DNA from: Dehalococcoidia bacterium
GTDB taxonomy: Bacteria; Chloroflexota; Dehalococcoidia; GIF9; AB-539-J10
Assembly (NCBI GenBank): GCA_007129495.1
Contig: SKVJ01000039.1
Coordinates: 20,303-84,302, forward strand
Length of the DNA stretch: 64,000 nt
Reading direction: 5' to 3'
Shown here: positions 23,614 to 42,029 of the stretch, one piece after another
How the letters are laid out: every line of letters starts with the position of its first letter
How positions within the stretch are numbered: position 1 is the first letter of the stretch
Notes under the pieces: model-generated
Told to the model about the DNA's origin: nothing
The model's input: the letters and a program-made list of their open reading frames with translations, nothing else
Databases searched by the model: none
Translations under genes and position numbers: made by a program

Positions 23614-23629
23614 CAGATAGTGCGGTTCG

Positions 23630-24622: not shown

Positions 24623-24689
24623 CAGTGAATTCTCGGTGCCGGCTCACCTTTATTCGTGGCCGGGTGCTCTGCAGGGACAGTATACAGTG

Positions 24690-25307: not shown

Positions 25308-26734
25308 GGTGCGGTCTCCAGCGCCAGCTTGCCCAGTCCCATCTGGACAGGCACCGGGTACTGGCCGGTGAAGCAGGCCGTACAAAGGCTGCTACACGGG
25401 CGTTGCAGTGCTTTCTGTAGTCCTTCAAGGCTGATGTAACCGAGAGAATCGGCCTGAACATGCTTCTGTATTTCGGCAACTGAGTAGCGGGCTGCGATAA
25501 GCTCAGATTCGGTCGGAATGTCCACGCCAAGAAAGCAGGGGTGGATCAGCGGCGGGGCACAAATTCTGAGGTGAACCTCTCGTGCACCAGCGGCTCGCAG
25601 AAGAGCGACTACGTGTGGTGTGGTCGTGCCGCGAACGATGCTGTCATCCAGCACGACAAGTCGTTTACCCGCTATCGTGCCGGAAAGTGGATTGAACTTC
25701 AATTGTACGCCGAGGTCTCTCAGGCGCTGGTCGGGAGCAATGAACGTGCGGCCAATATAACGATTCTTGAGCAGCCCTTCACAGTACGGGATGCCGGATG
25801 CATCAGCGAAACCGATAGCGGCGGGAATTGCGGAATCCGGAATGCCAAGTACGAGATCTGCGTCGACCGGGTATTCACGCCAGAGTTGCGCACCCATATC
25901 CTGTCTACTGTCATAGACGAGCCTGTTCTCAAGCGTACTGTCGGGTCGTGCGAGATAGATGTATTCGAAGGCACAGAATGCATGGCGCTGCCCCTCTCCT
26001 ATGTGCAGTCGCGTAACACCATCCGCGCCAAATGCGAGCAGCTCGCCAGGCTCAAGTTCACGTTCGAATCGTGCGCCGATATGGTCGAGGGCACATGATT
26101 CGGAAGCCACAACCGGACTCAAACCGATGTATCCCAGGCACAGAGGGCGAACCCCGTTGGGATCACGCACGGCGATAAGCCTGTCTGTCGTGAGCAGGGT
26201 GAGGGAGTAGGCGCCTATGAGACGACGGGTTGCGGAAGCGACTCGCTCCACCCAATTATGACCGGGTGTCGAAAGGATGAGGTTTGCGATCACTTCGGAA
26301 TCTGTCGTTGCACTGAACTTGAATCCCTTCTCAAGCAGTTCCTGACGAAGCTGGACGGCGTTCACAATGTTGCCGTTATGCGCCAGTGCGATCTTGCCTT
26401 CAGGACCTGATACCACTATCGGCTGAGCATTGACGCTGCTGTTCGTTCCAGTAGTTGAATAGCGGTTGTGACCAATTCCAGAGAAGCCACTCAGACGGGA
26501 GAGCGACTCTTCATCGAATACCTGTGAGACAAGCCCGATTGCTGCATGGCGCTTGAGGTCGCGTCCATTAGAGACCACAATACCGCTGCTCTCCTGGCCG
26601 CGGTGCTGTAGCGCGAATAACGCGAAGAATATCAGGCGGGCCACGTCTTCGGGTGGGGAAAAAGTGCCGAAGACAGCGCACTTGTCATGGATCATGCTTG
26701 ATACAACCTCAGTAGTCCCTGAGAGTGCTGTCAA
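25304..26734 (-). CDS. purF: Amidophosphoribosyltransferase
   Basis: Propeptide then CAVFG (Ntn Cys), LQHRGQE, GHNRYST, VVLDDSIVRGTT, Fe-S Cys; start may be ATG 26695. Confidence 0.97.
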   Translation of the reverse strand: MTALSGTTEVVSSMIHDKCAVFGTFSPPEDVARLIFFALFALQHRGQESSGIVVSNGRDLKRHAAIGLVSQVFDEESLSRLSGFSGIGHNRYSTTGTNSSVNAQPIVVSGPEGKIALAHNGNIVNAVQLRQELLEKGFKFSATTDSEVIANLILSTPGHNWVERVASATRRLIGAYSLTLLTTDRLIAVRDPNGVRPLCLGYIGLSPVVASESCALDHIGARFERELEPGELLAFGADGVTRLHIGEGQRHAFCAFEYIYLARPDSTLENRLVYDSRQDMGAQLWREYPVDADLVLGIPDSAIPAAIGFADASGIPYCEGLLKNRYIGRTFIAPDQRLRDLGVQLKFNPLSGTIAGKRLVVLDDSIVRGTTTPHVVALLRAAGAREVHLRICAPPLIHPCFLGVDIPTESELIAARYSVAEIQKHVQADSLGYISLEGLQKALQRPCSSLCTACFTGQYPVPVQMGLGKLALETAP

Positions 26735-27836
26735 CTCGGTTGCGTCTAGTTGAGTTCTCGTTCATCAAGTCCACGAACTGATGAAAGAGGTATGTGCTGT
26801 CCAGGGGCCCCGGCGTACCTTCAGCATGATACTGGATGGAGATCAGGGGATACTCCTCATGAGTGATACCCTCGACAGTGCCATCGTTCAGGTTCACATG
26901 GCTTATGGCGATGCCTTGAGGAAGGGTTTCACCAGCCACAGCGTAACCATGATTTTGAGTCGTGATATATACGCGTCCTGTGTGGACGTCACGCACTGGA
27001 TGATTCCCGCCATGGTGGCCGAACTTCAGTTTGAAGGTCTGACCGCCCAGCGCGCGTGCGATAACCTGGTGGCCGAGGCAGACACCCATCAGAGGCACAC
27101 GGCCCAGCAACTGGCGCATCACCTCCTCGAGGTCGGTCAAGTGGGCCGGATCTCCAGGTCCGGGTGACAGCAGGACACCATCGGGAGACAACTCGCGTAT
27201 GCGATCAAGGCCGGCAGAGACAGGCACAACCGTAACCCTGCAGCCAGCGGCTGTGAGGTGTCTGATGATACTTTGCTTCACACCGCAGTCAACCAGAACT
27301 ACGTGATACGCCTCGTCGGGCGTAGTGGCAGTGGCCACTCGCTCGCTGTCCGTACTCACTTCATGGGCCAGTGGCATCTGTCCGTATGCCAGCGTAGAGC
27401 GAAGTTCACGCAGGGCGTCTTCCGGCAGGAGATCAGATGTGAGGACACCCATCATGACGCCGGCGGCCCGGAGCTTACGTGTCAGAGCGCGTGTATCCAG
27501 ACCTGCGATACCGGGGATGCCGTGTGTCGACAGATAGCTATCGAGTGTTTGGACGGACTGGAAATGGCTTGGTGTTGCACAGTGCTCGCGCACCACAAGG
27601 CCACGCGCCTGGACATGAGGCGACTCGTCATCGATCGGATTGATTCCGTAGTTGCCGACAAGTGGATATGTAAGCACCAGCAACTGGCCCCTGAACGAAG
27701 GGTCCGTCAGCATCTCCTGGTAGCCTGTCATGCTTGTGTCAAAAACTACCTCGCCGTACGTGGTAGTGTCAGCTCCAAATGACTCCCCCTCGTACGTAGT
27801 ACCATCTTCGAGTATCAGGTAGGCTTTCTTAGTCAT
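26709..27836 (-). CDS. carA: Carbamoyl-phosphate synthase small (glutaminase) subunit
   Basis: GEVVFDTSMTGYQE..TDPS, LSPGPGDP, GVCLGHQ, QNHGYAV, QYHAE. Confidence 0.97.
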   Translation of the reverse strand: MTKKAYLILEDGTTYEGESFGADTTTYGEVVFDTSMTGYQEMLTDPSFRGQLLVLTYPLVGNYGINPIDDESPHVQARGLVVREHCATPSHFQSVQTLDSYLSTHGIPGIAGLDTRALTRKLRAAGVMMGVLTSDLLPEDALRELRSTLAYGQMPLAHEVSTDSERVATATTPDEAYHVVLVDCGVKQSIIRHLTAAGCRVTVVPVSAGLDRIRELSPDGVLLSPGPGDPAHLTDLEEVMRQLLGRVPLMGVCLGHQVIARALGGQTFKLKFGHHGGNHPVRDVHTGRVYITTQNHGYAVAGETLPQGIAISHVNLNDGTVEGITHEEYPLISIQYHAEGTPGPLDSTYLFHQFVDLMNENSTRRNRVDSTLRDY

Positions 27837-27880
27837 ATCGTCCACTCCTGACGGGCGGTACGTATTCAACGGTCACCGGA

Positions 27881-29638
27881 TCAACCATGGAATCTGTTGG
27901 TGATCGGAAGGCGACGGTCGCGACCGAATGCCCGAGTCGTTATTTTGATTCCCGGCGGTGCCTGGCGTCTCTTGTACTCACTGTGATCGACGAGCTGTGC
28001 GGTGCGCTCAACGATGTCCGCGTCATGGCCAAGTGCGACTATCTGTGCCACGCTTCTATCGTCTTCCACGTACAGCTTGAGGATAGGATCCAGTACTTCA
28101 TAGGGTGGAAGACTATCGCTGTCTTTTTGATTCGGTCGCAGCTCTGCCGACGGTGGCCGGCACATGACCCTAGGTGGGATGACACAATCCGGGCCCAGTG
28201 AGTTGCGATGGTGCGACAATTCGTATACAAGAGACTTGGGAACGTCCTTGAGTACGGCGAAACCTCCAGCCATGTCGCCATACAGTGTAGTGTACCCGGT
28301 GGCCATCTCACTCTTGTTACCAGTAGTTAAGACAAGCCAGCGGAACTTGTTTGAGAGAGACATCAGTATTGTTCCGCGTATACGCGCCTGAAGATTTTCC
28401 TCTGTCGAGTCTTCTTCCAGTCCTTCGAAAACCGGGCCGAGCATTTCTAGGAACGCAGTGTATGCAGGCTCCACGGGAATTGTGATTAGACGGATGTTGA
28501 GGTTATCAGCGACTGCTTGAGCGTTGTCGCTACTCTCGGAAGCTGTGAATCTGGATGGCAGGCAGACTGCGACAACATTCTCCGGTCCGAGCGCATCGCA
28601 TGCGATGCAGGCCACAAGAGACGAATCGATACCACCAGACAGCCCTATGACGACCTGGTCGAATCCGTTCTTGCGCACGTAATCTGCAGTCCCGAGCACC
28701 AGGGCGCGATATACCTCGTCGCACTTGTCGACAGGCTGAAACGTGCAGGGTTGCAGCGCAGGCTTCGCGTGGTCACCCACAGTGGCGGCGATGTCTATCT
28801 CGGTGTTATCCGTCGTGCGGCCGCGCACCAACGTCTCAGTCTTGCGCCATCTCGGGTCGTGAAGGCGGGCACGAAACACGGATTCGATCTGCACGTCGGC
28901 AACGACCAGATCTTCCTTGAACGCTTCTCCCGCAGCCAGCACTGCTCCCTGTTCATCGACGATCATACTCTCGCCGTCAAATACCAATTCGTCCTGTCCG
29001 CCAACCAGATTACACATAGCGAACACGCAGACGTTATCTCTCGCCCTGGTTGCCAGCATCTGACGACGGCTGTCGCATTTTCCGCGATGATAGGGAGATG
29101 CGCTCAGATTCACGATGATCTCCGCGCCATTCGCAGCCTGTACGCTGGCGGGTCCACCCTCGTACCAGATGTCTTCGCAGATAGTGACGCCGATGCCGAC
29201 TCCGCCAAGACGGAATACCGGACTGGCACGGCCTGCGCGGAAGTATCGGTTCTCATCAAAGACGCCGTAGTTGGGGAGGAAGACCTTATGGTAGATACCA
29301 CGGACGCCGCCATCGTAGAGAATCGCTGCCGCGTTGTATACATCGGAATCGCTGTCCACGAATCCTACTATCACGAGAGAATGGCGCGTGTGTTCAGCGA
29401 TAAGGCGAAGGGAACACTGATTCTCGTTGATGAAGCGAGGGCGTAACAACAGGTCTTCAGGCGGATACCCGCTTATGGCCAACTCGGGGAACACAATTAC
29501 ATCAGCACCTCTCGCCACCGCCTCATCAACAGATGAAATGATGCGCTCGGTGTTGCCAGCCAGGTCACCGACGGTACTGTTGATCTGCGCGAGTGCGATA
29601 CGAACAGACAGCGCTTGCTGTCGGTCGGGGTAGCTCAT
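27881..29638 (-). CDS. nadE: Glutamine-dependent NAD+ synthetase
   Basis: Nitrilase domain (FPEL, YHK.FLPNY, ICEDIW) plus GLSGGIDS, ENLQARIRG, TGNKSE; start uncertain (29638/29647/29686). Confidence 0.96.
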   Translation of the reverse strand: MSYPDRQQALSVRIALAQINSTVGDLAGNTERIISSVDEAVARGADVIVFPELAISGYPPEDLLLRPRFINENQCSLRLIAEHTRHSLVIVGFVDSDSDVYNAAAILYDGGVRGIYHKVFLPNYGVFDENRYFRAGRASPVFRLGGVGIGVTICEDIWYEGGPASVQAANGAEIIVNLSASPYHRGKCDSRRQMLATRARDNVCVFAMCNLVGGQDELVFDGESMIVDEQGAVLAAGEAFKEDLVVADVQIESVFRARLHDPRWRKTETLVRGRTTDNTEIDIAATVGDHAKPALQPCTFQPVDKCDEVYRALVLGTADYVRKNGFDQVVIGLSGGIDSSLVACIACDALGPENVVAVCLPSRFTASESSDNAQAVADNLNIRLITIPVEPAYTAFLEMLGPVFEGLEEDSTEENLQARIRGTILMSLSNKFRWLVLTTGNKSEMATGYTTLYGDMAGGFAVLKDVPKSLVYELSHHRNSLGPDCVIPPRVMCRPPSAELRPNQKDSDSLPPYEVLDPILKLYVEDDRSVAQIVALGHDADIVERTAQLVDHSEYKRRQAPPGIKITTRAFGRDRRLPITNRFHG

Positions 29639-30137
29639 TCTCTGCATCAAGCTATTCTCGCTGTTAGCTCGTGGGTGTATCCTCACCGTATATTGTAGCA
29701 GGTTGTCGTCATTACGTGTGCTATGGCGTCAGCTGGCCATCGGTGATGCCGGAAAACCACGGATCTCGACGTCCGCTTGGGTACGTATTGCTGCGAATTG
29801 TGGTCATTGCTATAGTGTGTGCTGGTTACTACAATTGTTCAACGACCCTTGGGTTTCTAATAAGAATGACACGGGTGGTTCCAGTTAAAGAACTTCGTTG
29901 TCACTCGATCTCGATAGTTGCCAGGATCCGGGCAACAGTCTTCGAAACGAGGTGTGAGTTATCCGCGCGCTGCGCTGGTCTGTTGAAGAATTGAGATCGG
30001 TTACGATACGAACTTAGAAATACTACTATGTTGATTCAGTCTTCATCTGTCGTGGTGTACTCCCCGCACCTAGTTTGAAGTGGGTGGGGATATGCCGAAG
30101 CGGCTATGTGCAGCACCAGTGAAAAGGAGCAGAGTAA

Positions 30138-31385
30138 TTGGAGAGTTCTAATCCGTTCGACATTGTGAAGCGGCAGATCGATAGGTGTGCTGAGATAATG
30201 CAGCTTGAGCCAAGCGTGACTGCAATACTCAAGTCACCCGTGCGAGAATTGCACGTCTCGATGCCTGTCCGAATGGATGATGGCACTGTCAGAGTCTTCC
30301 AGGGATTCCGTGTCCAGTACAACGACGCAAGGGGAATAACAAAGGGCGGAATACGGTTTCATCCTGACGAAACTATCGATACCGTGCGTGCTCTTGCAGC
30401 ATGGATGGTGTGGAAATGCGCTCTGGTGGATCTACCACTTGGTGGCGCCAAAGGTGGCGTGATATGCAATCCTAAGGAGATGTCCACAGGTGAACTGGAG
30501 AGGTTGAGTCGAGCCTATGTCAGAAGCGTATTCCAGTTCATCGGTCCGGAACGGGATGTTCCCGCTCCCGATGTCTACACAACGCCGCAGATCATGGCAT
30601 GGATGATGGATGAGTATTCCGTCATCGCGCAGAAGCCGCAATTTGGGGTAATTACCGGGAAGCCGTTGTCCATCGGAGGATCTCTTGGACGAGGCGACGC
30701 TACTGCCCGTGGCGGGATGTACTGTATTCGGGAGGCTGCCAAAGTATTGGGTATCGATTTGAGCAAGGCTACCGTCGCGGTACACGGCTACGGAAATGCT
30801 GGCTACCACGCCGCACGCCTGTGCCGAGATCTGTTTGGCTCCAGGATCGTGGCGGTTTGTGACAGTAAGGGCGGCGCCTGTTGCGAGGTTGGAATCGATC
30901 CCGAAGCTGCGCAGCACTGCAAGGCGTCTACCAGCACGGTATGCGACCTGCCCGAAACCGAGCCGATCTCAGCAGATGAGCTTCTCGAGATGGATGTTGA
31001 CGTACTGATTCCTGCTGCCATCGAAGGTGTTATCACTGCCAGGAATGCCGGAAGAATAAAGGCCCGAATCGTTGCTGAACTGGCGAATGGCCCGACGACG
31101 CCTGAGGCAGATGACATTCTGTTCCAGAATGGCGTGCATCTCATTCCGGACTTTCTTTGTAATGCCGGCGGCGTCACAGTGTCCTATTTCGAGATGGTGC
31201 AGAATTTCTACCAGTATCCATGGTCCGAAGCCGATGTGCATGAGCGTCTGGACAGGAAAATGACTGCTGCATACCACTCTGTGCTTAACACGAGTAGAGA
31301 ATACGAGATCGATATGCGGCAAGCTGCATACATCAGGGCTGTGGAGCGTGTTGTGGAAGTGATGAAGCTTCGCGGATGGGCGTAA
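30138..31385 (+). CDS. gdhA: Glu/Leu/Phe/Val dehydrogenase, most likely glutamate dehydrogenase
   Basis: KGGIRFHP, GGAKGG, DVPAPD, ITGKP, GYGNAG, ELANGP, NAGGVTVSYFE; TTG start with AAGGAG SD. Confidence 0.93.
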   Translation: MESSNPFDIVKRQIDRCAEIMQLEPSVTAILKSPVRELHVSMPVRMDDGTVRVFQGFRVQYNDARGITKGGIRFHPDETIDTVRALAAWMVWKCALVDLPLGGAKGGVICNPKEMSTGELERLSRAYVRSVFQFIGPERDVPAPDVYTTPQIMAWMMDEYSVIAQKPQFGVITGKPLSIGGSLGRGDATARGGMYCIREAAKVLGIDLSKATVAVHGYGNAGYHAARLCRDLFGSRIVAVCDSKGGACCEVGIDPEAAQHCKASTSTVCDLPETEPISADELLEMDVDVLIPAAIEGVITARNAGRIKARIVAELANGPTTPEADDILFQNGVHLIPDFLCNAGGVTVSYFEMVQNFYQYPWSEADVHERLDRKMTAAYHSVLNTSREYEIDMRQAAYIRAVERVVEVMKLRGWA

Positions 31386-31464
31386 GGCGCGGAGTCGCTT
31401 ATTCACATATGTGCACGAGCCGGAAATGAGAGCTCGCATCGGTGCGGGCTTGATCTTGATGATG

Positions 31465-31490
31465 AACAGGGGGCTAAGTGGCCCCCTGTT
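31465..31490. terminator. Bidirectional intrinsic terminator between gdh and glnA
   Basis: AACAGGGGGCT-AAGT-GGCCCCCTGTT hairpin between convergent genes. Confidence 0.75.
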
Positions 31491-31513
31491 TCCGGATTAC
31501 GTGTGGTTGGTGT

Positions 31514-32857
31514 CTAGAACACCGGCAAGTAGCGCTTGAGCTCGTACTCTGTGACCTGAGTGCGGTAGGCATCCCACTCGATTAGCTTGTTCTGAATGAA
31601 TGCGTTGAATACGTGATCCCCAAGGGCTTTGCGGACTACTTCGCTTCCGGCGGTAAGTTGGGTCGCCTCGTAGAGAGTTGCCGGCAGGGAGCCGATGCCC
31701 CGTCGTTCTCTCTCCTCCGGGCCCATTACATAGACATTTTCCTCAACGGGCTCCGGGCACTCATAGCCCTTCTCTATACCTTCCAGCCCTGCGGCAAGCA
31801 TGACAGAAAATGCGAGATATGGATTGCACGCAGGATCGGGAGAGCGGAGCTCGACTCGCGTCGCGTTCTCCTGCCCTGGCTTGTAACCTGGTACTCTGAT
31901 GAGGTCTGCCCTGTTTCGTCTCGCCCACGAGAGATAAACGGGCGCCTCATAACCGGGCACCAGGCGCTTGTATGAATTGACCAACTGGTTGGTGACCGCG
32001 GTGAATTCCGGGGCATGTTGGAGGAGGCCAGCAATGTACGAAAGGGCGGTTCCGGACAGGCTATACCGGCCTTCCGGATCAAAGAATGCGTTGTGACCAT
32101 CTTTGAATAGCGACTGGTGGGTATGCATCCCACTGCCGTTGATGCCGAACACCGGTTTGGGCATGAATGTCGCGTGTACACCATGGTCAAGTGCTATCTG
32201 TTTGACGACCAGCCGATATGTCATGACACTGTCAGCCATTGTGAGAGCGTCGGTGTAACGCATGTCGATCTCGTGCTGGCTAGGCGCAACTTCGTGGTGG
32301 GAATACTCGACACCTATGCCCATTTCCTCAAGTGTGAGAACAGTCTCTCTTCGCAAGTCGGTCGCCAGATCCAGTGGGGTCATATCGAAGTAGCCACCTT
32401 CGTCGAGCGGCTCGGTGCCATACTTGTCCTTGAAGTAGAAATACTCCAGTTCAGGTCCAACGTAGAATGTGAAGCCCAGGTCTGCCGCCCTTTGTAGGTT
32501 CCTCTTGAGCACATAACGTGGGTCGCCCTCGAAGGGCGTTCCCTCGGGTCGAATAACATCACAGAACATCCTCGCTACTGCGTGGTGACCTTTCGGTCTC
32601 CACGGCAATAACTGAAAAGTCTCCGGATCCGGCAGGGCCATCATGTCGCTCTCATCGATGCGGCAGAATCCCTCGATCGATGATCCGTCAAAACCCATGC
32701 CCTCTTCAAGGGCTCCCTCAAGTTCTTCGACAGTGATAGCGAAACTCTTGAGGTATCCCAGGATATCAGTGAACCATAACCGGATGAACTTGACGTCGTG
32801 CTCTTTTGCCGTCTTCAGCACGTATTCCTTGGCTTCGTCCCTTGTTCTCTTGGCCAT
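31514..32857 (-). CDS. glnA: Glutamine synthetase type I (alpha-like)
   Basis: FDGSSIEGF, HHEVAPSQHEI, FMPKP...NGSGMH, SYKRLVPGYEAP, ELRSPDP..NPYL. Confidence 0.97.
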   Translation of the reverse strand: MAKRTRDEAKEYVLKTAKEHDVKFIRLWFTDILGYLKSFAITVEELEGALEEGMGFDGSSIEGFCRIDESDMMALPDPETFQLLPWRPKGHHAVARMFCDVIRPEGTPFEGDPRYVLKRNLQRAADLGFTFYVGPELEYFYFKDKYGTEPLDEGGYFDMTPLDLATDLRRETVLTLEEMGIGVEYSHHEVAPSQHEIDMRYTDALTMADSVMTYRLVVKQIALDHGVHATFMPKPVFGINGSGMHTHQSLFKDGHNAFFDPEGRYSLSGTALSYIAGLLQHAPEFTAVTNQLVNSYKRLVPGYEAPVYLSWARRNRADLIRVPGYKPGQENATRVELRSPDPACNPYLAFSVMLAAGLEGIEKGYECPEPVEENVYVMGPEERERRGIGSLPATLYEATQLTAGSEVVRKALGDHVFNAFIQNKLIEWDAYRTQVTEYELKRYLPVF

Positions 32858-32927
32858 TTCTCCTCCTTTATCTGCTGCGCCGCTGTGACGGCTCAACGTT
32901 CGATAAGGAGAATTATCAGTGCAGAAT

Positions 32928-32965
32928 GTTTCGGGTGTGTTTCGCTGGTGTTACCGGGCCGTGAA
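32928..32965 (-). promoter_or_regulatory. GlnR-box array upstream of glnA
   Basis: Minus strand TTCAC-N6-GTAAC-N6-GAAAC-N6-GAAAC, four half-sites at exact 11-bp phase, followed by -10-like GATAAT (32912-32917). Confidence 0.8.
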
Positions 32966-32985
32966 TTGTGCGACGGGCTCAGAAA

Positions 32986-34431
32986 CTAGCCCCTGAGTTC
33001 TTCTATTAACATATTGCGCGTCATGGAGGGGTTCGCCCTGCCACGTGTGAGGCGCATTACCTGGCCTGTGAGGAATGTGAGCGACTGTGCTCTTCCAGCG
33101 CGGTAGTCCGCGACTGCTTTTGGGTTCTCGACAACTACCTGGCGAACTGCGTCCAGAATTGCATCCGAGCTGCTGATCTGTCCGAGATCCAATTCCTCGA
33201 TAATGCCTGCCGGTGGTTTGCCGGTACGATACATCTCCTCAAGAACAACTTTGGCTGCAGGGCCTCCCAAATCTCCACTTTCAATGAGTCCAACCAAAGC
33301 AGCAAGTCCTTCCGGCTGGAGGGGGCAATCGCACACCTCCACCCCGTCAGCGTTGATGAGGCGACTGACGTCGCCAAGAAGCCAATTAGCAATTGTGCGC
33401 GCCTGACCGCCGGAAGTGCGTACAACACACTGTTCAAAGAAATCGGCCATGGCACGAGAGGACACCAGAGTCAGCGCATCATGTGGAGCGATATCGTACG
33501 CTGACACGAAACGAGAACGGCGGACATCGGGAAGTTCGGGCATTCGATCCTCGACTTCAGTTATCCAGGACTGATCGAGCACCAGTGGAGGCAGGTCTGG
33601 CTCGGGGAAGTAGCGGTAGTCCTCGGCGAACTCCTTGGTCCGTTGCAGTACCGTGACGCCCTCCGCTTCCAGCCAGCCTCGAGTCTCCTGCCGCAGGCTT
33701 CCGCCGGTGCTCAGGAGATCCGCCTGGCGCTGCTGCTCGTACTTGAGGGCACGATACACGCTCCGGAAGCTATTCATATTCTTCACCTCGATCTTGGTGC
33801 CGAAGTCAGTCGACCCGATCGGGCGCAGGCTGATATTCGCATCGCAGCGAAAGCTGCCCTCCTCCATGTTGCCGGTGGAAACTCCAAGGTATCTCAAGAG
33901 GCCTCTCAGTCGCACCAGATACTCTCGGGCTTCCTCAGGCGACTGCAAATTGGGGTCACTGACGGTTTCCATGAGAGGGACACTGGACCGGTTGATATCA
34001 ACGAGGCTGTGGTCTTCCATATGAAACACTTTCGCAACATCTTCCTCAAGGTGCACGCGTGTAATTCCGACTCGCTTGGACTTGCCACCTACCTCGATAT
34101 CGAGCCATCCGTTGCGTCCGATCGGGGCATCGTACTGTGAGATCTGATATCCCTTCATGAGGTCCGGGTAGAAATAGTTCTTGCGGTCGAAACGGGTGTG
34201 TAGTGGCAAATCGCAGTGCAATGCGAGCGCGGTGGTGATGACAAACTCGATGGCTTGCCGATTTGCGACAGGCAAAGTGCCCGGCATTCCCATGCAGATC
34301 GGACATACCCGCGTATTAGGGGTGGAATCCTGGTAGTCCGCGCCACACCCGCAGAACATCTTCGTACGTGTGAGTAACTGCGCGTGGACTTCAAGTCCGA
34401 TGACTGTTTCGTAAGAATCAAGATTAGCCAT
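32986..34431 (-). CDS. gatB: Asp/Glu-tRNA amidotransferase subunit B
   Basis: IGLEVHAQL, FDRKNYFYPDL.KGYQISQ, HLEED, RCDANIS, DYRYFPEPDL. Confidence 0.97.
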   Translation of the reverse strand: MANLDSYETVIGLEVHAQLLTRTKMFCGCGADYQDSTPNTRVCPICMGMPGTLPVANRQAIEFVITTALALHCDLPLHTRFDRKNYFYPDLMKGYQISQYDAPIGRNGWLDIEVGGKSKRVGITRVHLEEDVAKVFHMEDHSLVDINRSSVPLMETVSDPNLQSPEEAREYLVRLRGLLRYLGVSTGNMEEGSFRCDANISLRPIGSTDFGTKIEVKNMNSFRSVYRALKYEQQRQADLLSTGGSLRQETRGWLEAEGVTVLQRTKEFAEDYRYFPEPDLPPLVLDQSWITEVEDRMPELPDVRRSRFVSAYDIAPHDALTLVSSRAMADFFEQCVVRTSGGQARTIANWLLGDVSRLINADGVEVCDCPLQPEGLAALVGLIESGDLGGPAAKVVLEEMYRTGKPPAGIIEELDLGQISSSDAILDAVRQVVVENPKAVADYRAGRAQSLTFLTGQVMRLTRGRANPSMTRNMLIEELRG

Positions 34432-34724
34432 TCACTCCTCCGGAGACAAGGCGTGGAAAGCCTGCCACGGTGCACTCATAGTCTGTGTGAAAGCTATTCA
34501 CCAGCGCCAACTGAATGTAGTATCGTCTCAAACCGTCGACCACAGATGATCTGCAGGCAACCTCATGCATTGAGCGGTTCCCAGCATCAGCGCTGACACG
34601 GGTCTTAGGTCAAGAAACAATAATAACACACGTGCCACAACCTGTCGGCTGAGCCCTGATGGTGCGTAGAGGAATCGATTACAATGCTCCGCCAGCGCGG
34701 TTGATTCATCGGCAGTTGCCGATC

Positions 34725-35396
34725 CTACACGTGCTTGCGAAAGCGGTAACCGATGTTGCGCACTGTGTCGATGAATGTATGCCCCGGATCCTCAAGTTTG
34801 CTCCGTAGCCGCCTTATGTGCACGTCCACTGTTCGATCGCCACCATAGTAGTCGTAGCCCCACACTTTGTTGAGAAGCGACTGACGAGTGTGTACACGAC
34901 CAGGCTCGCGTGCCAGAAACTTGAGAAGTTCATACTCTTTGAAGGTCAACTCGACTAGTCGTCCTGCGATACTAACCTCGCACGTCGCGGCATTGATGGC
35001 GAGGTCTCCATGCCGCATGAGGTCGGCGCTTTCGGGGTGAAGAGTGAGAAGGTGCCTGACTCTGGCACGCAATTCGGTATCCGAAGAACTGCCAACGAAG
35101 AAGTCCTCGATGCCGATGGCAGGCCAGGCGACGTCAAGGAGGTCGAACGTGATAACGGTGAGCAGCGGGCTGTCCGTGATTGCCTTTATCCTCGGCGGCA
35201 TTGCGGTAAGATCGTCGGGCGAGTCAGCAACGAGAATCACCGCCGATGTCGCTGCGAGCAGAAAACTCTCGATCGAAGTGGTATTCGAGGCTTTCCTGAC
35301 CTTGGCGGGAAGCAGGGCAAGCGCCTGTGGCAGTTCAGGAAAAGGAGAGGGTTCGGGATGCACGATTGCGAGATGCGGGATCGGTAGGTTGTTCAC
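34725..35396 (-). CDS. glnR: Orphan OmpR-family regulator resembling actinobacterial GlnR
   Basis: LTFKEYELLKFL...VWGYDYYGGDRTVDVHIRRLRSKL...TVRNIGYRF; atypical receiver domain; no kinase nearby. Confidence 0.78.
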   Translation of the reverse strand: MNNLPIPHLAIVHPEPSPFPELPQALALLPAKVRKASNTTSIESFLLAATSAVILVADSPDDLTAMPPRIKAITDSPLLTVITFDLLDVAWPAIGIEDFFVGSSSDTELRARVRHLLTLHPESADLMRHGDLAINAATCEVSIAGRLVELTFKEYELLKFLAREPGRVHTRQSLLNKVWGYDYYGGDRTVDVHIRRLRSKLEDPGHTFIDTVRNIGYRFRKHV

Positions 35397-35408
35397 TTGC
35401 GTCCTGCG

Positions 35409-36176
35409 TTAGTAAGCGTATAGTCTGCCGTATGGCCGCAGGTATAGTGGGAACAGCTTCACGAAATCAGCATCCAATATTTGATCCGCATTCGTTCCAA
35501 ATTGAGCCGAGTACCTGCCGATAGCCTCCCTGATGATACAGAAATCCCTATCATCAGGAGCAGCGACTCCAACTTCCTTCCCAAGCTGGTGACTTTCTAT
35601 TGGGCCACGAAGGAAGATGGCTCCGCCGTGCATTCCTGTACCCACGAACCTCGCTCGCGACCATGCAGATCCACGTGTCATCAATCCTAACACGATAAGT
35701 GTGCCACCTGCCATGTACTCGCCCAAAAAGTCCTGCGCTCCACCTCCTACAACCACTGTTGGACCTTTTCCCTCATACTCCTTCATGTGGATGCCGGCTC
35801 TGTAGCCTGCACTGTCACGGACCAGAATGGTTCCGCCACGAGCGGCCAGTCCAAGCGCATCACCTGTATGCCCGTGAATCACTATCTCGCCACCATTCAT
35901 GGTATTGCCCACGCCATCCTGGCCGTTGCCATGGATGATGAGAGATGGTCCACTCATGAACGCACCGAGATCGTTGCCAGGCGTTCCATGCAGGTCAATC
36001 GTCACTTGCGCGTTCAGGTTTGTTCCGATATAGCGCTGGCCATTCACATTGCGGACCGTGATGTGTTTGGCACCTTGGCCGACCGCCTGGTTGAGGAGGG
36101 TATTCAGATCGCGAAATGCCATTCTGCGTGCGTCGATTTCCATCGCCATACTCTCCAATGGTGTGGCTGTTGCCAT
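35409..36176 (-). CDS. Glutamate synthase GXGXG (domain 3) subunit
   Basis: GQRYIG, GTPGNDLGAFM, GDALG, GYRAGIHMKEY, DFLGEYMAGG. Confidence 0.92.
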   Translation of the reverse strand: MATATPLESMAMEIDARRMAFRDLNTLLNQAVGQGAKHITVRNVNGQRYIGTNLNAQVTIDLHGTPGNDLGAFMSGPSLIIHGNGQDGVGNTMNGGEIVIHGHTGDALGLAARGGTILVRDSAGYRAGIHMKEYEGKGPTVVVGGGAQDFLGEYMAGGTLIVLGLMTRGSAWSRARFVGTGMHGGAIFLRGPIESHQLGKEVGVAAPDDRDFCIIREAIGRYSAQFGTNADQILDADFVKLFPLYLRPYGRLYAY

Positions 36177-36179
36177 ATT

Positions 36180-37682
36180 TCACCTGCCAGCCATTCTGAC
36201 CCCGAGGATTTCAAGCTCTGTGTCGCTAAGGCCAACTCCCCTGAGGTGGAGCCGATTGCCCCGAAGGCTCTCGATTGCATTTACTCCCATTCCGCCAAGC
36301 ATATCCATTATTTCAAGGCTCCATCCCCTGACGAGATTGATCACTCTTTGCGCACCAATCTCCGGGTTAATGCGTTTAGTAAGAACCGGGTCGCTCGTGC
36401 ATATGCCCCAGTTGCACTTGCCTGTGTAGCACTGCTGGCACACGTGGCAGCCAAGGGCGATCAAGGCTGCGGTGCCGATATATACGGCATCTGCCCCCAA
36501 CGCGATAGCTTTTGCCACGTCGCCACTGCACCGAAGACCACCGGAGGCGACGACCGAAGCCTGGTTGCGGATACCCTCTTCACGCAACCTGGTATCAACC
36601 GATGCCAGCGCCAGCTCTAAGGGGATTCCGACGCTATCCCGAATCGCCTTGGGTGCAGCGCCGGTTGCGCCGCGCAATCCATCAACTACGATGATGTCCG
36701 CTCCCGCACGTACCATTCCGCTTGCAATGGCTGCCACATTATGCACTGCTGCTATCTTCACCGAGACCGGCTTCTCATAGTTGGTCACTTCCTTGATCGC
36801 ATAGATGAGTTGACGGAGATCCTCTATTGAATAGATGTCGTGATGCGGAGCGGGTGATAGTGCATCGGTACCGATGGGGATCATTCTGGTCTTGGAAACC
36901 TCGTCAGTCACCTTCTCTCCGGGTAGATGGCCGCCGATTCCAGGCTTGGCTCCCTGGCCAATCTTGATCTCGATGATGCGGGCAGAGCGAAGATACTCCG
37001 GGTTCACGCCATAGCGGCCTGATGCAACTTGAACCGTGGTGTTCGGTCCATACCGGGCGAGAGACGGGTGCAGTCCGCCTTCACCAGTGTTCCATAGAGT
37101 ACCCAATTCGGTGGCGGCCCTCGCCAGGGAGAGTTGAACGTTCAGGCTGACCGCGCCGTACGACATCGCGGCGAACATGATAGGTGTCTCCAGCTTCACC
37201 TGTGGGGCCAAGGTTGTCGTTAGGATTCCGGCTTCATCGAAGGTGAGCCGGTCGGGTTTCCTTCCGAGGTACGTACTGAGTTCCATCGGCTCCCGCAGTG
37301 GGTCAATTGAAGGATTAGTTACCTGGCTCGCGTTAAGCAGCAGATGATCCCAGTAGATAGTATGGTTCTTATCGTCGCCCATTCCCGTAAGGAGCATGCC
37401 TCCGCTCTCTGCCTGCTTGAGAATATCTTCAATAACCTCGGGCCGCCAGTTAGCATTCGTGCGGTATTCGAGGGGATTGCGGCGAATTGTGAGTGCGTTG
37501 GTAGGACAGAAGACCACACACCTGTGGCATCCCACACAGTTGTCTTCATGAGCTTTTACAGTGTGGTCATCCTCGTCGAAATAGTGGACCTTGAAGCTGC
37601 ACTGGGTCACGCAGACGTTGCACTGGATGCATCTTGTCGGATCGCGTTCCACAATGAATCTGGTAGGCAAGAAACTCTTCAT
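36180..37682 (-). CDS. Glutamate synthase FMN-binding subunit with N-terminal 2x[4Fe-4S] domain
   Basis: CIQCNVC..C, CVGCHRC..CP, AMSYGA, NTGEGG, IKIGQGAKPGIGGHLPG.KV, SPAPHHDIYSIEDL, C-terminal 3Fe-4S Cys. Confidence 0.95.
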   Translation of the reverse strand: MKSFLPTRFIVERDPTRCIQCNVCVTQCSFKVHYFDEDDHTVKAHEDNCVGCHRCVVFCPTNALTIRRNPLEYRTNANWRPEVIEDILKQAESGGMLLTGMGDDKNHTIYWDHLLLNASQVTNPSIDPLREPMELSTYLGRKPDRLTFDEAGILTTTLAPQVKLETPIMFAAMSYGAVSLNVQLSLARAATELGTLWNTGEGGLHPSLARYGPNTTVQVASGRYGVNPEYLRSARIIEIKIGQGAKPGIGGHLPGEKVTDEVSKTRMIPIGTDALSPAPHHDIYSIEDLRQLIYAIKEVTNYEKPVSVKIAAVHNVAAIASGMVRAGADIIVVDGLRGATGAAPKAIRDSVGIPLELALASVDTRLREEGIRNQASVVASGGLRCSGDVAKAIALGADAVYIGTAALIALGCHVCQQCYTGKCNWGICTSDPVLTKRINPEIGAQRVINLVRGWSLEIMDMLGGMGVNAIESLRGNRLHLRGVGLSDTELEILGVRMAGR

Positions 37683-37692
37683 GATGTTATTC

Positions 37693-38460
37693 CTAGTTTC
37701 GGATTGCGATGCCTTTCGCTGCAAGGTACTGCTTTGTCGCAAGAATGTCGGTTTCATTGTAGTGGAATATGCTTGCCGCCAGTACGGCATCAGCTTCGCC
37801 TTCCTCAAGCGCACGATAGAGATCCTGAGGTGATCCTGCTCCCCCACTTGCAATTACGGGGATCGACACCTGCGTCGAGATCGCTCGAGTGAGTTCAATG
37901 TCGTAACCCGTGCGGTGGCCGTCGGCATCCATGCTGGTGAGAAGTATTTCTCCCGCTCCCAGTGCGGCAGCCTGCGCAGCCCACTGCACGGCATCGATGT
38001 CTACAGCCACGCTTCCACCGTACGCGTGTACCTGCCATCGGAGAGGATTGCTGCCGGGAATACGTTTCGCATCTATTGCGACGACGACACACTGGCTGCC
38101 GAAGCGGTCGGCGGCCTGGCTGATTAGATCCGGGTGGCGTACCGCCGAGGTATTGACCGAAATTTTGTCCGCGCCGCTCAACAGCAGGCGCCGCATGTCC
38201 TCAACAGTGCGAAGTCCACCGCCCACTGTAAGTGGAATGAAGACGACCTCAGCTATGCGCTCCACGAGTGTAGCCATAGTTTCCCTGTGCTCTTTGCTTG
38301 CAGTGATGTCGAGGAAGACCAGTTCGTCAGCCCCTCCGCGGTAGTAGCGGCGGGCGAGTTCGACCGGATCCCCGGAGTCGCGAAGGGACTGGAAGCTCTT
38401 TCCCTTCACGACGCGACCATCCTTCACGTCGAGACAGGGAATGATGCGCTTAGTCAGCAC
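37693..38460 (-). CDS. hisF: Imidazole glycerol phosphate synthase cyclase subunit
   Basis: [46 protein letters not shown]. Confidence 0.96.
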
Positions 38461-39598
38461 GAGCAGGTACCTCAATTGCAGGCCGTTGCTCGTCGGATGA
38501 CGGCATGTTCCCCAAGCGTGAGATGACAGGCTGGCCGCCGATCGGTATCCAGGTGTCGTCCAGTTCGGGGCTTACAAGTCTGATAGCCGATTCTTCCGAG
38601 GAGAGAAAGACCCTGGTACCCTGCGTAGCCACTACCAGCGGGCGGAGGCGGATCCTGTCGGTGAGTCCTACCATTTCACCTTCACGTGCGATGATGACAG
38701 TGAATGGCCCGTTCAGCAACAAACCGCCGTATGTGATGCGCAACGCCTCCATCACTTGAGCCTCAACTGCCTCCATCCGCGGAGCATCAGACCAGAAGGG
38801 TGCGGCGAGAACCTTCGCGGCTATCCGCATCGGCAGCTGATGTCGTCGAACCAGCAGATCGACTGCATAAGCAACAACTTCGGTGTCCGTTTGCAGCGAA
38901 CATATGTAGCCATACTGTTCGAGTGTGCGCTTGTTAATGCCATACGAAGATATTTCGCCATTGTGAACGACGGTCCAATCCAGAAGGCTGAATGGGTGAG
39001 CGCCGCCCCACCATCCGGGAGTGTTGGTGGGAAATCTGCCATGGGCTGTCCATATATAGCCGCTATAGTGTTCGAGTCTGAAGAACCGGGCGATATCGTA
39101 TGGATGGCCAACGCCCTTGAAGACACCCATGTTCTTCCCGGCCGAAAACACGAAGCTATCGGAGATATGTGAATTGATATGCATGGTCTTGTCGGCAACG
39201 TACTGAGCTTCATCGCTGACACCGAGTTTCTCGGGCCGGACGGACGCGAAGTACCTTTGCATCAAGGGTGGATTGGCGATGAGGTCCGGATCAACCTCCA
39301 TCGCCTCGGATTGCGCGATGACGAAGGACTCCGCAAGGTAGGCTTCAGTGTCACGTTGCCCTTGCCTGCTTGTGTACATAACGTGAAACGCAAACTCCTC
39401 CGGACGCTCCGGGTATAAGCCGTATGCGGCGAATCCACCACCGAGACCGTTATCCCTGTCCCTCATCAGGTCGATTGCCTGAATGGCTACATCCGCCGGA
39501 ATGGAGGCGCCGGATGTATCCATCACTCCAAAAATCGAGCACCCGTCGGATACCTTGTCGTCCCTGTATCTGTTATTGAGCTGGGTTAGATTCTTCAT
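38450..39598 (-). CDS. Class II (Ntn) glutamine amidotransferase, glutamate synthase domain-1 subunit
   Basis: DG|[50 protein letters not shown]. Confidence 0.92.
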
Positions 39599-39637
39599 TT
39601 CGTCACCGCTTCCTGCTGATAATGCGCCGACATCTCT

Positions 39638-40909
39638 TCATGTCACCGCAGTCAGTTCGTCATGCCATAGATGCGCTGGAATGGACAGTAGTCCGAAGTC
39701 TTCGCGGACGAGGATCTCCTGCCAGCCTTCAACCCTGACCTTCTCCTTCATGAGTAGATGCAGTAGGCCGCACTTGCTCGTGTCCCCGATGGCAACCATA
39801 CCAATCACTATGCCACCCTTCAGGATTACTTGTCTATAATAGCCTGGTCCCTCTGATACTACCTTCTCATGGAGTGCGGGATTGTATTCAACCACACCCG
39901 CCGATCCCACAGACAAGCCGAAATAGGGAATAGAATTAAGTGTGGTGCTCCCATCATATAAACGCTGTTGGCCGGTCATACTAGCACCCGCTACTGCACC
40001 TCCTGCCACTGCATTAGGCCAAGTGGCAAGCACGGACTCCTGCTCCCGTACGAAGTCGTATGTCCTGCAGGCATCACCACATGCGAAGATGTCCTGCGCC
40101 GTAGTTCTCATGGAAGTATCCACTAGGATGCCCTGGTCGATGAAGGCGATGCTTTCAGCCAGTTCAGTACGAGGTCTCACTCCTACTGCAAGTATTACGA
40201 GTTCACACTGGATCCTTGTACCATCGTCGAGAGTCACGCTGGAGACTGACAGTGATTCCGGATGATCGCCATTTATGGATGTCACCTGTTTCCCGGTTGC
40301 GACATGCACTCCGGCTGCAATCGCGGCGCCCTGCACAAGTGAGGAGCCTGTGGCATCAAGCATCGTGCTGAGTAGGCGAGGCTGCATCTCAATGACAGTT
40401 ACGTCCACCCCGTACTTGCGCAATGCGTCGGCTGCACTGAGTCCGATGAGACCACCTCCCACGACTACTGCACGCCGGGATGCCGGTAGATGTCGCGCAA
40501 TCTGCCGGGCATCATCATATGTGGTGAAGGTGAACACTCCCCGCCTGTTGGTTCCGGTGATCTGTGGCACAATCGGCGAGCTTCCTGTTGCAATCAATAG
40601 GCGACGCCAAGATGGGTTAGTGCCGTCCCTCAATGAAACCGTTCTCGCAGCGGTGTCAATATGTAACGCAGGGGTGTCCAATCTCAGGTCTATGGAATGG
40701 TTCTTGTAGAATTCCCGTGGAACAAGATACATCGCATCGATGGTCTTGCCCTCGGATAGGTGTTTGGCTATGAGCGGTCGTGAGTACGCAGCATAGGGTT
40801 CATCCGAAACCATCAATATACGGTTCGACGTATCCGCCTTGCGAATTTCACGGGCGGCAGCGACTGCTCCTGCTGAGTTTCCTATTATCACGTATTCGTA
40901 ATCGGCCAT
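39638..40909 (-). CDS. NAD(P)/FAD-dependent oxidoreductase
   Basis: IIGNSAG, YSRP, ATGS, VVGGGLIG, FACGD. Confidence 0.92.
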   Translation of the reverse strand: MADYEYVIIGNSAGAVAAAREIRKADTSNRILMVSDEPYAAYSRPLIAKHLSEGKTIDAMYLVPREFYKNHSIDLRLDTPALHIDTAARTVSLRDGTNPSWRRLLIATGSSPIVPQITGTNRRGVFTFTTYDDARQIARHLPASRRAVVVGGGLIGLSAADALRKYGVDVTVIEMQPRLLSTMLDATGSSLVQGAAIAAGVHVATGKQVTSINGDHPESLSVSSVTLDDGTRIQCELVILAVGVRPRTELAESIAFIDQGILVDTSMRTTAQDIFACGDACRTYDFVREQESVLATWPNAVAGGAVAGASMTGQQRLYDGSTTLNSIPYFGLSVGSAGVVEYNPALHEKVVSEGPGYYRQVILKGGIVIGMVAIGDTSKCGLLHLLMKEKVRVEGWQEILVREDFGLLSIPAHLWHDELTAVT

Positions 40910-40933
40910 GTAGATGTTCTCCCCCGGTATATA

Positions 40934-41545
40934 CTATGAAGCGGCCAAGTGGAGGAAGTTCTTGTATAGGCGAAGGCCATCAGCACCACTCTTCTCAGGA
41001 TGAAACTGCGTGGCAACGGTAAGTCCGTGCTTCACTACACTACAAAAAGGCACGCCGTACTCCGTGGTTGCATTGACAAGCGATGGGTCCACTGGCTCGA
41101 CCACGTAGCTGTGCACGAAGTAGAAACTGGCGTCGTTTGGAATGCCGTCGAATAGCGCCGGAACACCTTCGTAGTGGACCTGGTTCCAGCCCATGTGAGG
41201 CACTTTTTGAGAGGCAGGCAAGCGAACAACCCGGCCCCGGAATATGCCGAGACAGTCTTGGCCGATGCCTTCCTCCGAGTGCTCGAACAGAACCTGCATC
41301 CCCATGCAGATCCCAAGGAAAGGGCGCTCAGCCGCAATCCACTGCGTCACCATCTGAGACGAACCACGAAGTTGCATGTTGGCCATTGTATCGGTGGCTG
41401 CGCCTACCCCAGGCAGTATCATCGCGTGAGCTTTTCGCGCGTCCAAAGCCGATTCGACCACAAGCGGGTCGCTGCCTAGAAACCGCAACGCCGAAATAAC
41501 ACTTCTGAGGTTTCCTGCTCCGTAGTCCACGACTGCTACATGCAT
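40934..41545 (-). CDS. hisH: Imidazole glycerol phosphate synthase glutaminase subunit
   Basis: DYGAGNL.SV, LPGVG, GICMGMQ, VPHMGWN, YFVHSY, QFHPEKS. Confidence 0.96.
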   Translation of the reverse strand: MHVAVVDYGAGNLRSVISALRFLGSDPLVVESALDARKAHAMILPGVGAATDTMANMQLRGSSQMVTQWIAAERPFLGICMGMQVLFEHSEEGIGQDCLGIFRGRVVRLPASQKVPHMGWNQVHYEGVPALFDGIPNDASFYFVHSYVVEPVDPSLVNATTEYGVPFCSVVKHGLTVATQFHPEKSGADGLRLYKNFLHLAAS

Positions 41546-41567
41546 GATGCTGATACCGCTCCTCTTG

Positions 41568-41939
41568 TCAGTTCTGGATCGCTACTTTCACGGTGTTCAT
41601 TCGGGCTACTACCTGCTGGTTGCTTCCATGTTTCACCACCACGTTCATCTGCTCCAAGACCTCATAGTCGCCATTTGCCACTGAAGCCGAGTCCCACAAT
41701 ACCGGGAAGCTGGCGTCTCTTCTGTCGGATGTGCCGACCTGCAACCACGTGTTCTGTCCAACGCTGCGGATATACCAGTTATTCATAATCCGCACGACTG
41801 GGCCGGACAACCCCATAGAGTCCAAATCCCGGCGGAGAAGTCCTTCGTCAACATTCTCCTTCAGGAGAATGCGACCGGACAGGATCCTGGATGCTTCTGA
41901 TGTCGCGACGAAATGGGGGCCCCAATTATCCTGTTGCAT
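41568..41939 (-). CDS. Hypothetical protein (123 aa) inside the glutamate synthase operon
   Basis: Strong AAGGAGG SD; fills the gap between co-oriented genes; beta-rich C-terminus with WD....NG.YEV. Confidence 0.8.
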   Translation of the reverse strand: MQQDNWGPHFVATSEASRILSGRILLKENVDEGLLRRDLDSMGLSGPVVRIMNNWYIRSVGQNTWLQVGTSDRRDASFPVLWDSASVANGDYEVLEQMNVVVKHGSNQQVVARMNTVKVAIQN

Positions 41940-42029
41940 TACTCTTCCTCCTTGGTCGCAAGAATCTCCGGCAGAATGAGTTCATCGTGCGAATCGGGTG
42001 AACATCACGCGATTCCACGTCGCTCCTTC

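Follow-up and report, generated by a model that had tools for sequence, protein, structure and literature searches.

The window analysed in this study is a stretch of 64,000 nucleotides from a Dehalococcoidia bacterium of the phylum Chloroflexota (assembly GCA_007129495.1, contig SKVJ01000039.1, positions 20,303 to 84,302). We found that the open reading frame (ORF) at 34725-35396 on its minus strand probably encodes a kinase-less, GlnR-like activator that acts through arrays of four short sites, one before the glutamine synthetase gene glnA in the window and one before amtB-glnK elsewhere in the genome. Two publications present GlnR as an actinobacterial or actinomycete regulator (PMC10235972, PMC3087709). 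Because a Dehalococcoidia genome carries the closest GlnR relative together with four-site arrays before glnA and an ammonium transporter gene, GlnR-type control appears not to be confined to Actinobacteria. A first-pass annotation, made from the letters of the window, had described an actinobacterial-type GlnR with its cognate box in an apparently non-actinobacterial host. The host assignment is borne out by the nearest named homologues of the protein, which come from metagenome-assembled genomes (MAGs) of Chloroflexota and Dehalococcoidia.

Four-site arrays upstream of glnA and amtB-glnK

The operator of glnA occupies 32928..32965 on the minus strand and consists of four 5-nt sites with an 11-nt period. 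These are TTCAC (site 1, 32961-32965), GTAAC (site 2, 32950-32954), GAAAC (site 3, 32939-32943) and GAAAC (site 4, 32928-32932), separated by the spacers GGCCCG, ACCAGC and ACACCC. The array TTCAC-n6-GTAAC-n6-GAAAC-n6-GAAAC that the annotation had reported upstream of glnA was thus confirmed letter for letter. It lies 20 nt past the stop codon of gatB (32986-32988, minus strand), upstream of glnA. The operator was the sole match in the window at up to 3 mismatches, and none of 100 dinucleotide shuffles contained a match. With the relaxed pattern T.AC-n6-GT.AC-n6-G.AAC-n6-G.AAC, a single match was obtained on both strands of the whole 2,106,958-base genome. No further strong array was found in the window, including the regions before gdh, the glutamate synthase genes and the regulator gene itself.

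The predicted target glnA (31514..32857, minus strand) encodes a type I glutamine synthetase (Pfam Gln-synt_C, 438 bits; NCBIfam TIGR00653, 539 bits, above the cut-off). Its start was corrected from the TTG at 32896 in the ORF list to the ATG at 32857, the most likely start, which stands behind the ribosome-binding site GGAGGAG (32860-32866, minus strand). The sequence GATAAT (32912..32917, minus strand) reads as a -10 hexamer and lies exactly 10 nt downstream of site 4. At the 17-nt spacing there is no -35 hexamer, the sequence being ACACAC with 0/6 matches to TTGACA, and a promoter scan of 32700-33200 returned no complete sigma-70-type promoter. In metatranscriptome run X1, a 1396-nt contig spanning 31500-32894, that is, glnA with a 37-nt leader, had a word depth of 112.6, and the gatB contigs had word depths of 2.9-10.2, although such contigs cannot give transcript start, strand or level. 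Positions 32907-33043 and most of the regulator gene were uncovered in this run, a contig gap that shows nothing. As a weak hint, the glnA contig is compatible with a separate, strong glnA transcript beginning near the predicted site.

The conservation of the array was examined in the same genus. All 15 other genomes hold an orthologue of the regulator, and all 15 loci were compared. Nine of these reach a glnA at least 80% identical together with its upstream region, and five end before glnA; locus L087, which has a partial, more distant glnA match at its end, was omitted from the array comparison. The array stood between gatB and glnA with the same spacing in 10/10 loci, namely the window and the nine relatives, which answers the annotation's question of whether the repeat is conserved before glnA in relatives. 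The in-register consensus was TTcAc-n6-G.AAc-n6-GaAAcA-n5-G.AACA, in which the half-sites are kept and the spacers vary freely, and a hexamer nAnAAT followed exactly 10 nt after the array in all ten. As judged from these alignments, the glnA operator is under selection. Among relatives without the four-site array (L099, L218 and L219, with variants in L101 and L102), another motif, ATTTGTGGTTTGATA(G/A)C, is conserved some 30-50 nt ahead of glnA and may be a different control element.

The genome-wide motif scan that the annotation had proposed was performed with matrices trained on the glnA sites of the nine relatives only, with the window's own site excluded. With a position matrix, the window site scored 41.4 bits, and the next best of 4.2 million genome positions scored 19.5. 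With a half-site matrix (four sites, 11-nt period; both strands, 2.1 Mb), in which position 4 is A at 0.93, the glnA array ranked first at 28.1 bits. The second rank, at 25.7 bits, was taken by G000:C48:9216-9253, which precedes an ammonium transporter gene, amtB (PF00909, 419 bits), followed by a PII gene, glnK (PF00543, 110 bits). Since the matrix had been trained on glnA promoters of other genomes, this second classical GlnR target was found independently.

The amtB array has the form TTAAC-n6-G(A/T)AAC-n6-GCAA(C/T)-n6-G(C/T)AA(C/T). It was present in 11/11 same-genus promoters examined, with scores of 19.8-29.3 bits; these comprise G000 and ten relatives with upstream sequence, and a twelfth genome, G004, has contig-end fragments only. 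Each amtB array is followed at exactly 10 nt by CA(C/T/G)ACT. Taking the glnA and amtB arrays together, all 21 have a hexamer at exactly 10 nt whose second letter is A and whose sixth is T. A distant second amtB paralogue, 36-41% identical, was observed directly after the regulator gene in six same-genus loci (L090, L088, L093, L092, L094 and L087), at the place where the window has gatB.

Three lower-scoring candidates were rejected as targets. C73:23351-23389 (19.5 bits) lies inside overlapping ORFs without a nearby nitrogen gene, and C40:588-625 (20.6 bits) adjoins an unidentified ORF, likewise with no sign of a nitrogen gene around it. The fourth-ranked candidate, C1:10805-10864 on the plus strand, consists of TTAAC repeats before pstS. 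These repeats have an 11-nt period, precede a pstS-like/pstC-like pair and adjoin a phoU-like gene (named by eye from the translations), and they are probably the pho boxes of a canonical OmpR paralogue.

Kinship of the regulator with actinobacterial GlnR

The regulator gene (34725..35396, minus strand) has a GTG start and encodes a protein of 223 amino acids, with a degenerate receiver at about residues 1-120 and an OmpR/PhoB winged helix at residues 146-219. The peptides quoted by the annotation (LTFKEYELL, VWGYDYYGG, RTVDVHIRRLRSKL, LPQALALLPAKV and PLLTVITFDLL...GIED) were all found in this ORF. Pfam Trans_reg_C (PF00486) matched residues 146-219 at 96.7 bits, and there was no Pfam Response_reg match in the protein. 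An AlphaFold model (pLDDT 83.4) consisted of a receiver-like alpha/beta domain and a winged helix. The modelled DNA-binding domain superposed on that of Saccharopolyspora erythraea GlnR at 1.9 Å with 51-52% identity. An OmpR/PhoB winged-helix DNA-binding domain, as in GlnR, is supported by both the Pfam score and this superposition.

The best sequence match in the Protein Data Bank (PDB) was S. erythraea GlnR (8HIG; 2.8e-38, residues 24-220). M. tuberculosis GlnR (8HIH; 2e-34, residues 11-218) and the S. erythraea DNA-binding domain (8HML) were the other top matches, and VicR came next at 2.9e-23 over the DNA-binding domain only. The identities of these entries were taken from the entry titles and the available part of PMC10235972. 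When the window protein was searched against five actinobacterial genomes, its best match was in 5/5 cases the GlnR locus, defined by GlnR_1st (PF21695) above the cut-off, at 108-135 bits, with runners-up at 79-87 bits. In the reverse direction, 25/25 actinobacterial GlnR_1st proteins matched the window ORF best in its genome, with margins of 7-37 bits.

A maximum-likelihood tree was calculated with IQ-TREE from 80 proteins and 233 columns, unrooted, after the long-branch row L198 had been dropped. A split supported at 100/100 separated 19 actinobacterial GlnRs and 24 GlnR-like proteins, including that of the window, from 37 other OmpR paralogues drawn from the window's genome, seven actinobacterial genomes and five Firmicutes or Ktedonobacteria loci. 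In a quick tree with L198 kept, the GlnR split had an SH-aLRT support of 91. The GlnR and GlnR-like groups also have in common a 2-residue deletion and the motif H..TVRNxGY in the wing region. Grouping with kinase-paired PhoB-like regulators, which the annotation had named as a possible outcome, was therefore not what we obtained; both the split and the reciprocal best hits place the protein with GlnR. The actinobacterial GlnRs themselves were monophyletic (100/99), with the window protein outside that group. The tree is compatible both with a sister group of GlnR and with a grade ancestral to it, because the GlnR-like proteins formed one group in only 10% of bootstrap trees and the tree is unrooted. 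The label of an actinobacterial-type GlnR thus stands as far as the GlnR side of the split is concerned, and has to be widened to a sister or broader group, since the protein is not nested among actinobacterial GlnRs. These comparisons indicate that the regulator is the closest relative of actinobacterial GlnR.

The residues of the receiver were compared by alignment with canonical paralogues. The acidic pair DD is replaced by HP in the window protein, the phospho-acceptor Asp by Val, the Thr by Ile and the Lys by Gly, so that none of the phosphorylation residues is kept. No histidine kinase gene was found by a domain search of the ORFs of 23.6-43.6 kb, and the neighbours of the regulator gene are gatB and glutamate synthase genes. 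The regulator is thus an orphan, as had been proposed.

Several observations weigh against the assignment to the GlnR kind. The match to GlnR_1st, at 21.1 bits, is below the cut-off of 27, so that this feature of GlnR membership is lacking. The weak match itself carries no weight, because an ordinary, phosphorylatable paralogue from the same genome scores 22.5 bits on the model. GlnR_1st was accordingly rejected as a test of kinship, as at 20-27 bits it also matches ordinary receivers, among them the genome's own paralogue and those of E. coli and other control genomes; above the cut-off it was found in 37/81 sampled Actinomycetota genomes (a count that includes three unpublished genomes, G043, G060 and G090) and in 11/151 Chloroflexota genomes. 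In the column of the GlnR Asp, which is kept in 7/7 aligned actinobacterial GlnRs, the window protein has Val, with an Asp two residues on, and the same-genus orthologues L084 and L090 are without any Asp. This Asp has been reported to be essential for dimer formation of GlnR (PMC12632262). As it is not kept, the assembly of protomers may differ from that of GlnR. In the fold search M. tuberculosis GlnR came first at 9.6e-17, with KdpE at 8.9e-15 and many further OmpR regulators close behind, so that the fold does not discriminate. R186, V190, R193 and R194, which touch the bases in the co-crystal of S. erythraea GlnR, are conserved in the window protein, but the same R, V, R, R occur in non-GlnR OmpR regulators, such as the genome's own C35 paralogue. 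The recognition helix is therefore consistent with a shared specificity and not decisive. Moreover, the paralogues in the tree come from few genomes, and cyanobacterial NblR is absent from it.

Of the GlnR-like receiver that had been claimed, the quoted peptides are present, but the resemblance is weak in both the Pfam score and the conserved Asp. Because these two features failed, we do not file the protein as a GlnR orthologue in the strict sense; on the sequence comparisons, it is best described as a non-actinobacterial member of the GlnR kind.

Distribution of the regulator and its arrays

Species-representative genomes supplied 80 related loci for comparison, and in 35/80 of these a glnA with at least 55% identity lies downstream of the regulator. 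A four-site array of at least 20 bits was present in 47/80, in 46 cases on the strand of the regulator, and in 32 of the 80 loci the array begins within 300 nt past the regulator gene; none of 400 shuffled loci reached 20 bits. Directly upstream of glnA, the distant loci gave few arrays, since their promoter stands ahead of amtB or glnK, immediately behind the regulator gene. Within a sample of the class Dehalococcoidia, a regulator match at 1e-35 or better was found in 79/121 genomes. Four complete single-contig genomes of 1.4-1.9 Mb (G143, G155, G179 and G191) have the order regulator-amtB-glnK-glnA, with arrays of 27.4-31.2 bits. Loci with the regulator plus an array are common in Dehalococcoidia.

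The labels of the related loci were mostly Dehalococcoidia or Chloroflexota, with some Deltaproteobacteria, Thermodesulfovibrionales, Omnitrophota and Acidimicrobiia. The same regulator with arrays was observed on contigs L020, L021, L048, L070, L047, L049 and L057, labelled Thermodesulfovibrionales, Deltaproteobacteria and Omnitrophota. As the L020 protein is nested deep in the Dehalococcoidia clade of the tree, a mis-binned contig or a recent transfer is suggested in that case. In two MAGs labelled Actinomycetes and Acidimicrobiia (L051/L103 and L061/L104), it is a GlnR-like protein of the Chloroflexota type, not classical GlnR, that adjoins glnA. A protein of this type is also the best GlnR_1st match in G041, at 26.7 bits.

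The distribution bears on the question of which protein binds the arrays. The sites could be real and yet be bound by another OmpR/PhoB regulator, the GlnR-like protein having other targets. The genome encodes four canonical, phosphorylatable OmpR-family paralogues, any of which could bind the sites, and tandem sites with an 11-nt period are a general pattern of the family, as the fourth-ranked TTAAC repeats before pstS illustrate. It has also been reported that PhoP and MtrA of Streptomyces bind at GlnR target promoters. Against such a binder stands the position of the arrays, directly after the GlnR-like gene in 32/80 related loci. Five genomes of the same family have no detected regulator; amtB was found in 0/5 of them, and of the three that have glnA none has an array upstream (best scores -5.9, 1.6 and -5.0 bits), a comparison with only three informative genomes that are related to one another. 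Furthermore, the half-site consensus is the same as for GlnR, the nearest relative that has been characterised. Published GlnR boxes, of which there are two copies, read gTnAc-n6-GaAAc, and their A at position 4 is irreplaceable (PMC10704036). Taken together, binding of the arrays by one of the canonical paralogues is unlikely, and the GlnR-like protein is the better candidate.

Proposed mechanism and genetic context of the regulator

The sequences themselves show conserved sites, the geometry of the promoter, a kinship with GlnR and a receiver that has lost its active-site residues; DNA binding, activation as opposed to repression, and a response to nitrogen supply are what we infer. The OmpR/PhoB winged helix would recognise 5-nt sites of the type (G/T)nAAC, and each of the four sites, set 11 nt or one helical turn from the next, would take up one protomer in a head-to-tail row. 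With 10 nt between the end of the promoter-proximal site and the -10 hexamer, the bound protein would replace the missing -35 contact and recruit RNA polymerase to the glnA promoter. The same regulator is predicted to drive amtB-glnK from the array at G000:C48:9216-9253. Because the N-terminal pseudo-receiver cannot be phosphorylated on Asp, its activity would be set by other means, for instance by a ligand or a partner protein, by a different modification, or through protein abundance. The structure of M. tuberculosis GlnR with RNA polymerase has four protomers head to tail on four sites, with the proximal b2 site downstream of the -35 position and in contact with sigma region 4 and the beta flap (PMC10235972). 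The promoter anatomy described here fits this activation complex. The proposal that a complete GlnR regulator-operator pair works here is thus supported by the grouping with GlnR and the 10/10 conservation of the repeat, with the working itself at the level of prediction.

We also considered whether the GlnR-like protein binds the arrays and represses glnA and amtB by covering the -35 region. The sites do overlap the region where RNA polymerase binds, and the direction of regulation is not readable from sequence alone. However, with 0/6 matches at the -35 position and no full promoter, the promoter should need a helper to be more than weak. In 21/21 arrays the -10 hexamer stands at a constant 10 nt, a distance that is required for contact with RNA polymerase on one helix face and matches the GlnR activation complex, and the high word depth of the glnA contig points weakly in the same direction. 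We consider repression improbable and activation by the GlnR-like protein the preferred reading. A chance or convergent resemblance, in which an ordinary degenerate response regulator unrelated to GlnR stands beside non-functional repeats, could draw on the GlnR_1st score below the cut-off and the lack of any NCBIfam model at its cut-off, but it is highly improbable, being already contradicted by an array that is unique, conserved with free spacers in 21 promoters and reached in score by 0/400 shuffled loci, and by the 100/100 split of the tree.

The system was compared with those already known. It resembles that of actinobacterial GlnR (Streptomyces, Mycobacterium, Saccharopolyspora and Amycolatopsis) in the order of domains, the lack of a partner kinase and a receiver without the acidic pocket, Thr and Lys. 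It is also alike in its 5-nt sites with an 11-nt period, four per promoter, with the consensus (g/t)TnAC / GnAAC, and in a proximal site that lies past the -35 position and ahead of the -10 hexamer. The targets glnA and amtB-glnK, here predicted from the two best arrays of the genome, are the same, and the proteins are linked by reciprocal best hits and a shared clade (100/100). The differences are the host, here a member of the class Dehalococcoidia in the Chloroflexota, the position of the protein outside the monophyletic actinobacterial group (100/99), its score below the GlnR_1st cut-off and the dimer Asp that is not kept. In addition, the regulator gene of the relatives usually lies directly upstream of amtB-glnK-glnA, an order that to our knowledge is not typical of Streptomyces or Mycobacterium.

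PhoB/PhoP with their pho boxes are similar in having tandem direct repeats of 11-nt period in place of a -35 hexamer, and in E. coli, too, about 10 nt separate the end of the pho box from the -10 hexamer. Both also have the recognition helix RTVDVHIRRLR in common. Unlike the window protein, PhoB retains an intact phosphorylation site and works with a partner kinase; pho-type boxes of the genome's own, the TTAAC repeats before pstS, form a separate set, and the kinase-paired PhoB/PhoP/MtrA-type paralogues are separated from the window protein by the 100/100 split of the tree. NblR, an atypical orphan OmpR regulator of cyanobacteria, acts independently of phosphorylation and is linked to nutrient stress. 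It was the top NCBIfam match of the window protein, at 100.9 bits over residues 90-221, but this is far below the cut-off of 300, covers the linker and DNA-binding domain only and comes from a protein not in the tree; none of the models listed came near its cut-off. The GlnR of Bacillus and other Firmicutes is a MerR family repressor that binds inverted repeats and shares with OmpR-type GlnR only the name and the glnA target; it belongs to an unrelated protein family and is not the system found here.

Dehalococcoidia and other Chloroflexota, which include the organohalide respirers used for bioremediation, abound in sediments, aquifers and the deep ocean. A literature search for GlnR in Chloroflexota, Dehalococcoides and five Chloroflexota genera, which did not cover subscription journals or RegPrecise, returned no paper on an OmpR-type GlnR in Chloroflexota and none naming a nitrogen regulator for Dehalococcoidia or for Chloroflexota generally. 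A concrete candidate regulator, a defined operator and two predicted target operons are now available and directly testable, and GlnR would shift from an actinobacterial speciality to part of a wider family. Tentatively, as a reading slightly less likely than not, we suggest that the OmpR-type GlnR system is not of actinobacterial origin and belongs, as a single branch, to a larger and more ancient family of kinase-less nitrogen regulators. Its members would have the regulator gene physically linked to amtB-glnK-glnA and a four-site (G/T)nAAC array as operator; the family would be common in Dehalococcoidia and occur also on contigs labelled Omnitrophota, Planctomycetota, Nitrospirota and Acidimicrobiia. 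As the Asp has been lost in the window's genus, control there would use a mechanism undescribed for GlnR, for example one in which the pseudo-receiver responds to a ligand or to a PII-type partner. A review (PMC10704036) treats the control of GlnR activity as an unsettled question, and natural variants without the conserved Asp could help to resolve it.

The gene order on the minus strand is the split glutamate synthase with hisF, then the regulator, gatB and glnA. The glutamate synthase genes encode an amidotransferase subunit (38450-39598), an FMN/Fe-S subunit (36180-37853) and a GXGXG subunit (35409-36176), with hisF (37693-38475) amid them. Because only 12 nt separate the last stop codon of glutamate synthase from the start of the regulator gene, co-transcription of the two is likely. 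The gene between the regulator and the operator, gatB (32986..34431; Pfam GatB_N and GatB_Yqey), is given as context and lies outside the predicted regulon. A glutamate dehydrogenase gene, gdh (30138-31385, plus strand), is convergent with glnA.

A homologue of NrpR, the archaeal-type nitrogen repressor, was observed at 23630-24622 on the minus strand, 7 kb from glnA (PF01995, 242 bits, plus HTH_12). It belongs to a different family from the window regulator, and the genome may thus hold two nitrogen regulators of different origin. The NrpR operator GGAA-n6-TTCC, known from methanogens, had 0 matches in the window. The surrounding region of about 20 kb (23600-43600) is dense in enzymes that use glutamine or glutamate. 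These include PdxT, a class-II amidotransferase, CarA, a glutamine-dependent NAD synthase, glutamate dehydrogenase, GlnA and GatB, as well as the split glutamate synthase enclosing hisF, a class-I amidotransferase and the product of a second glutamate-synthase-like gene.

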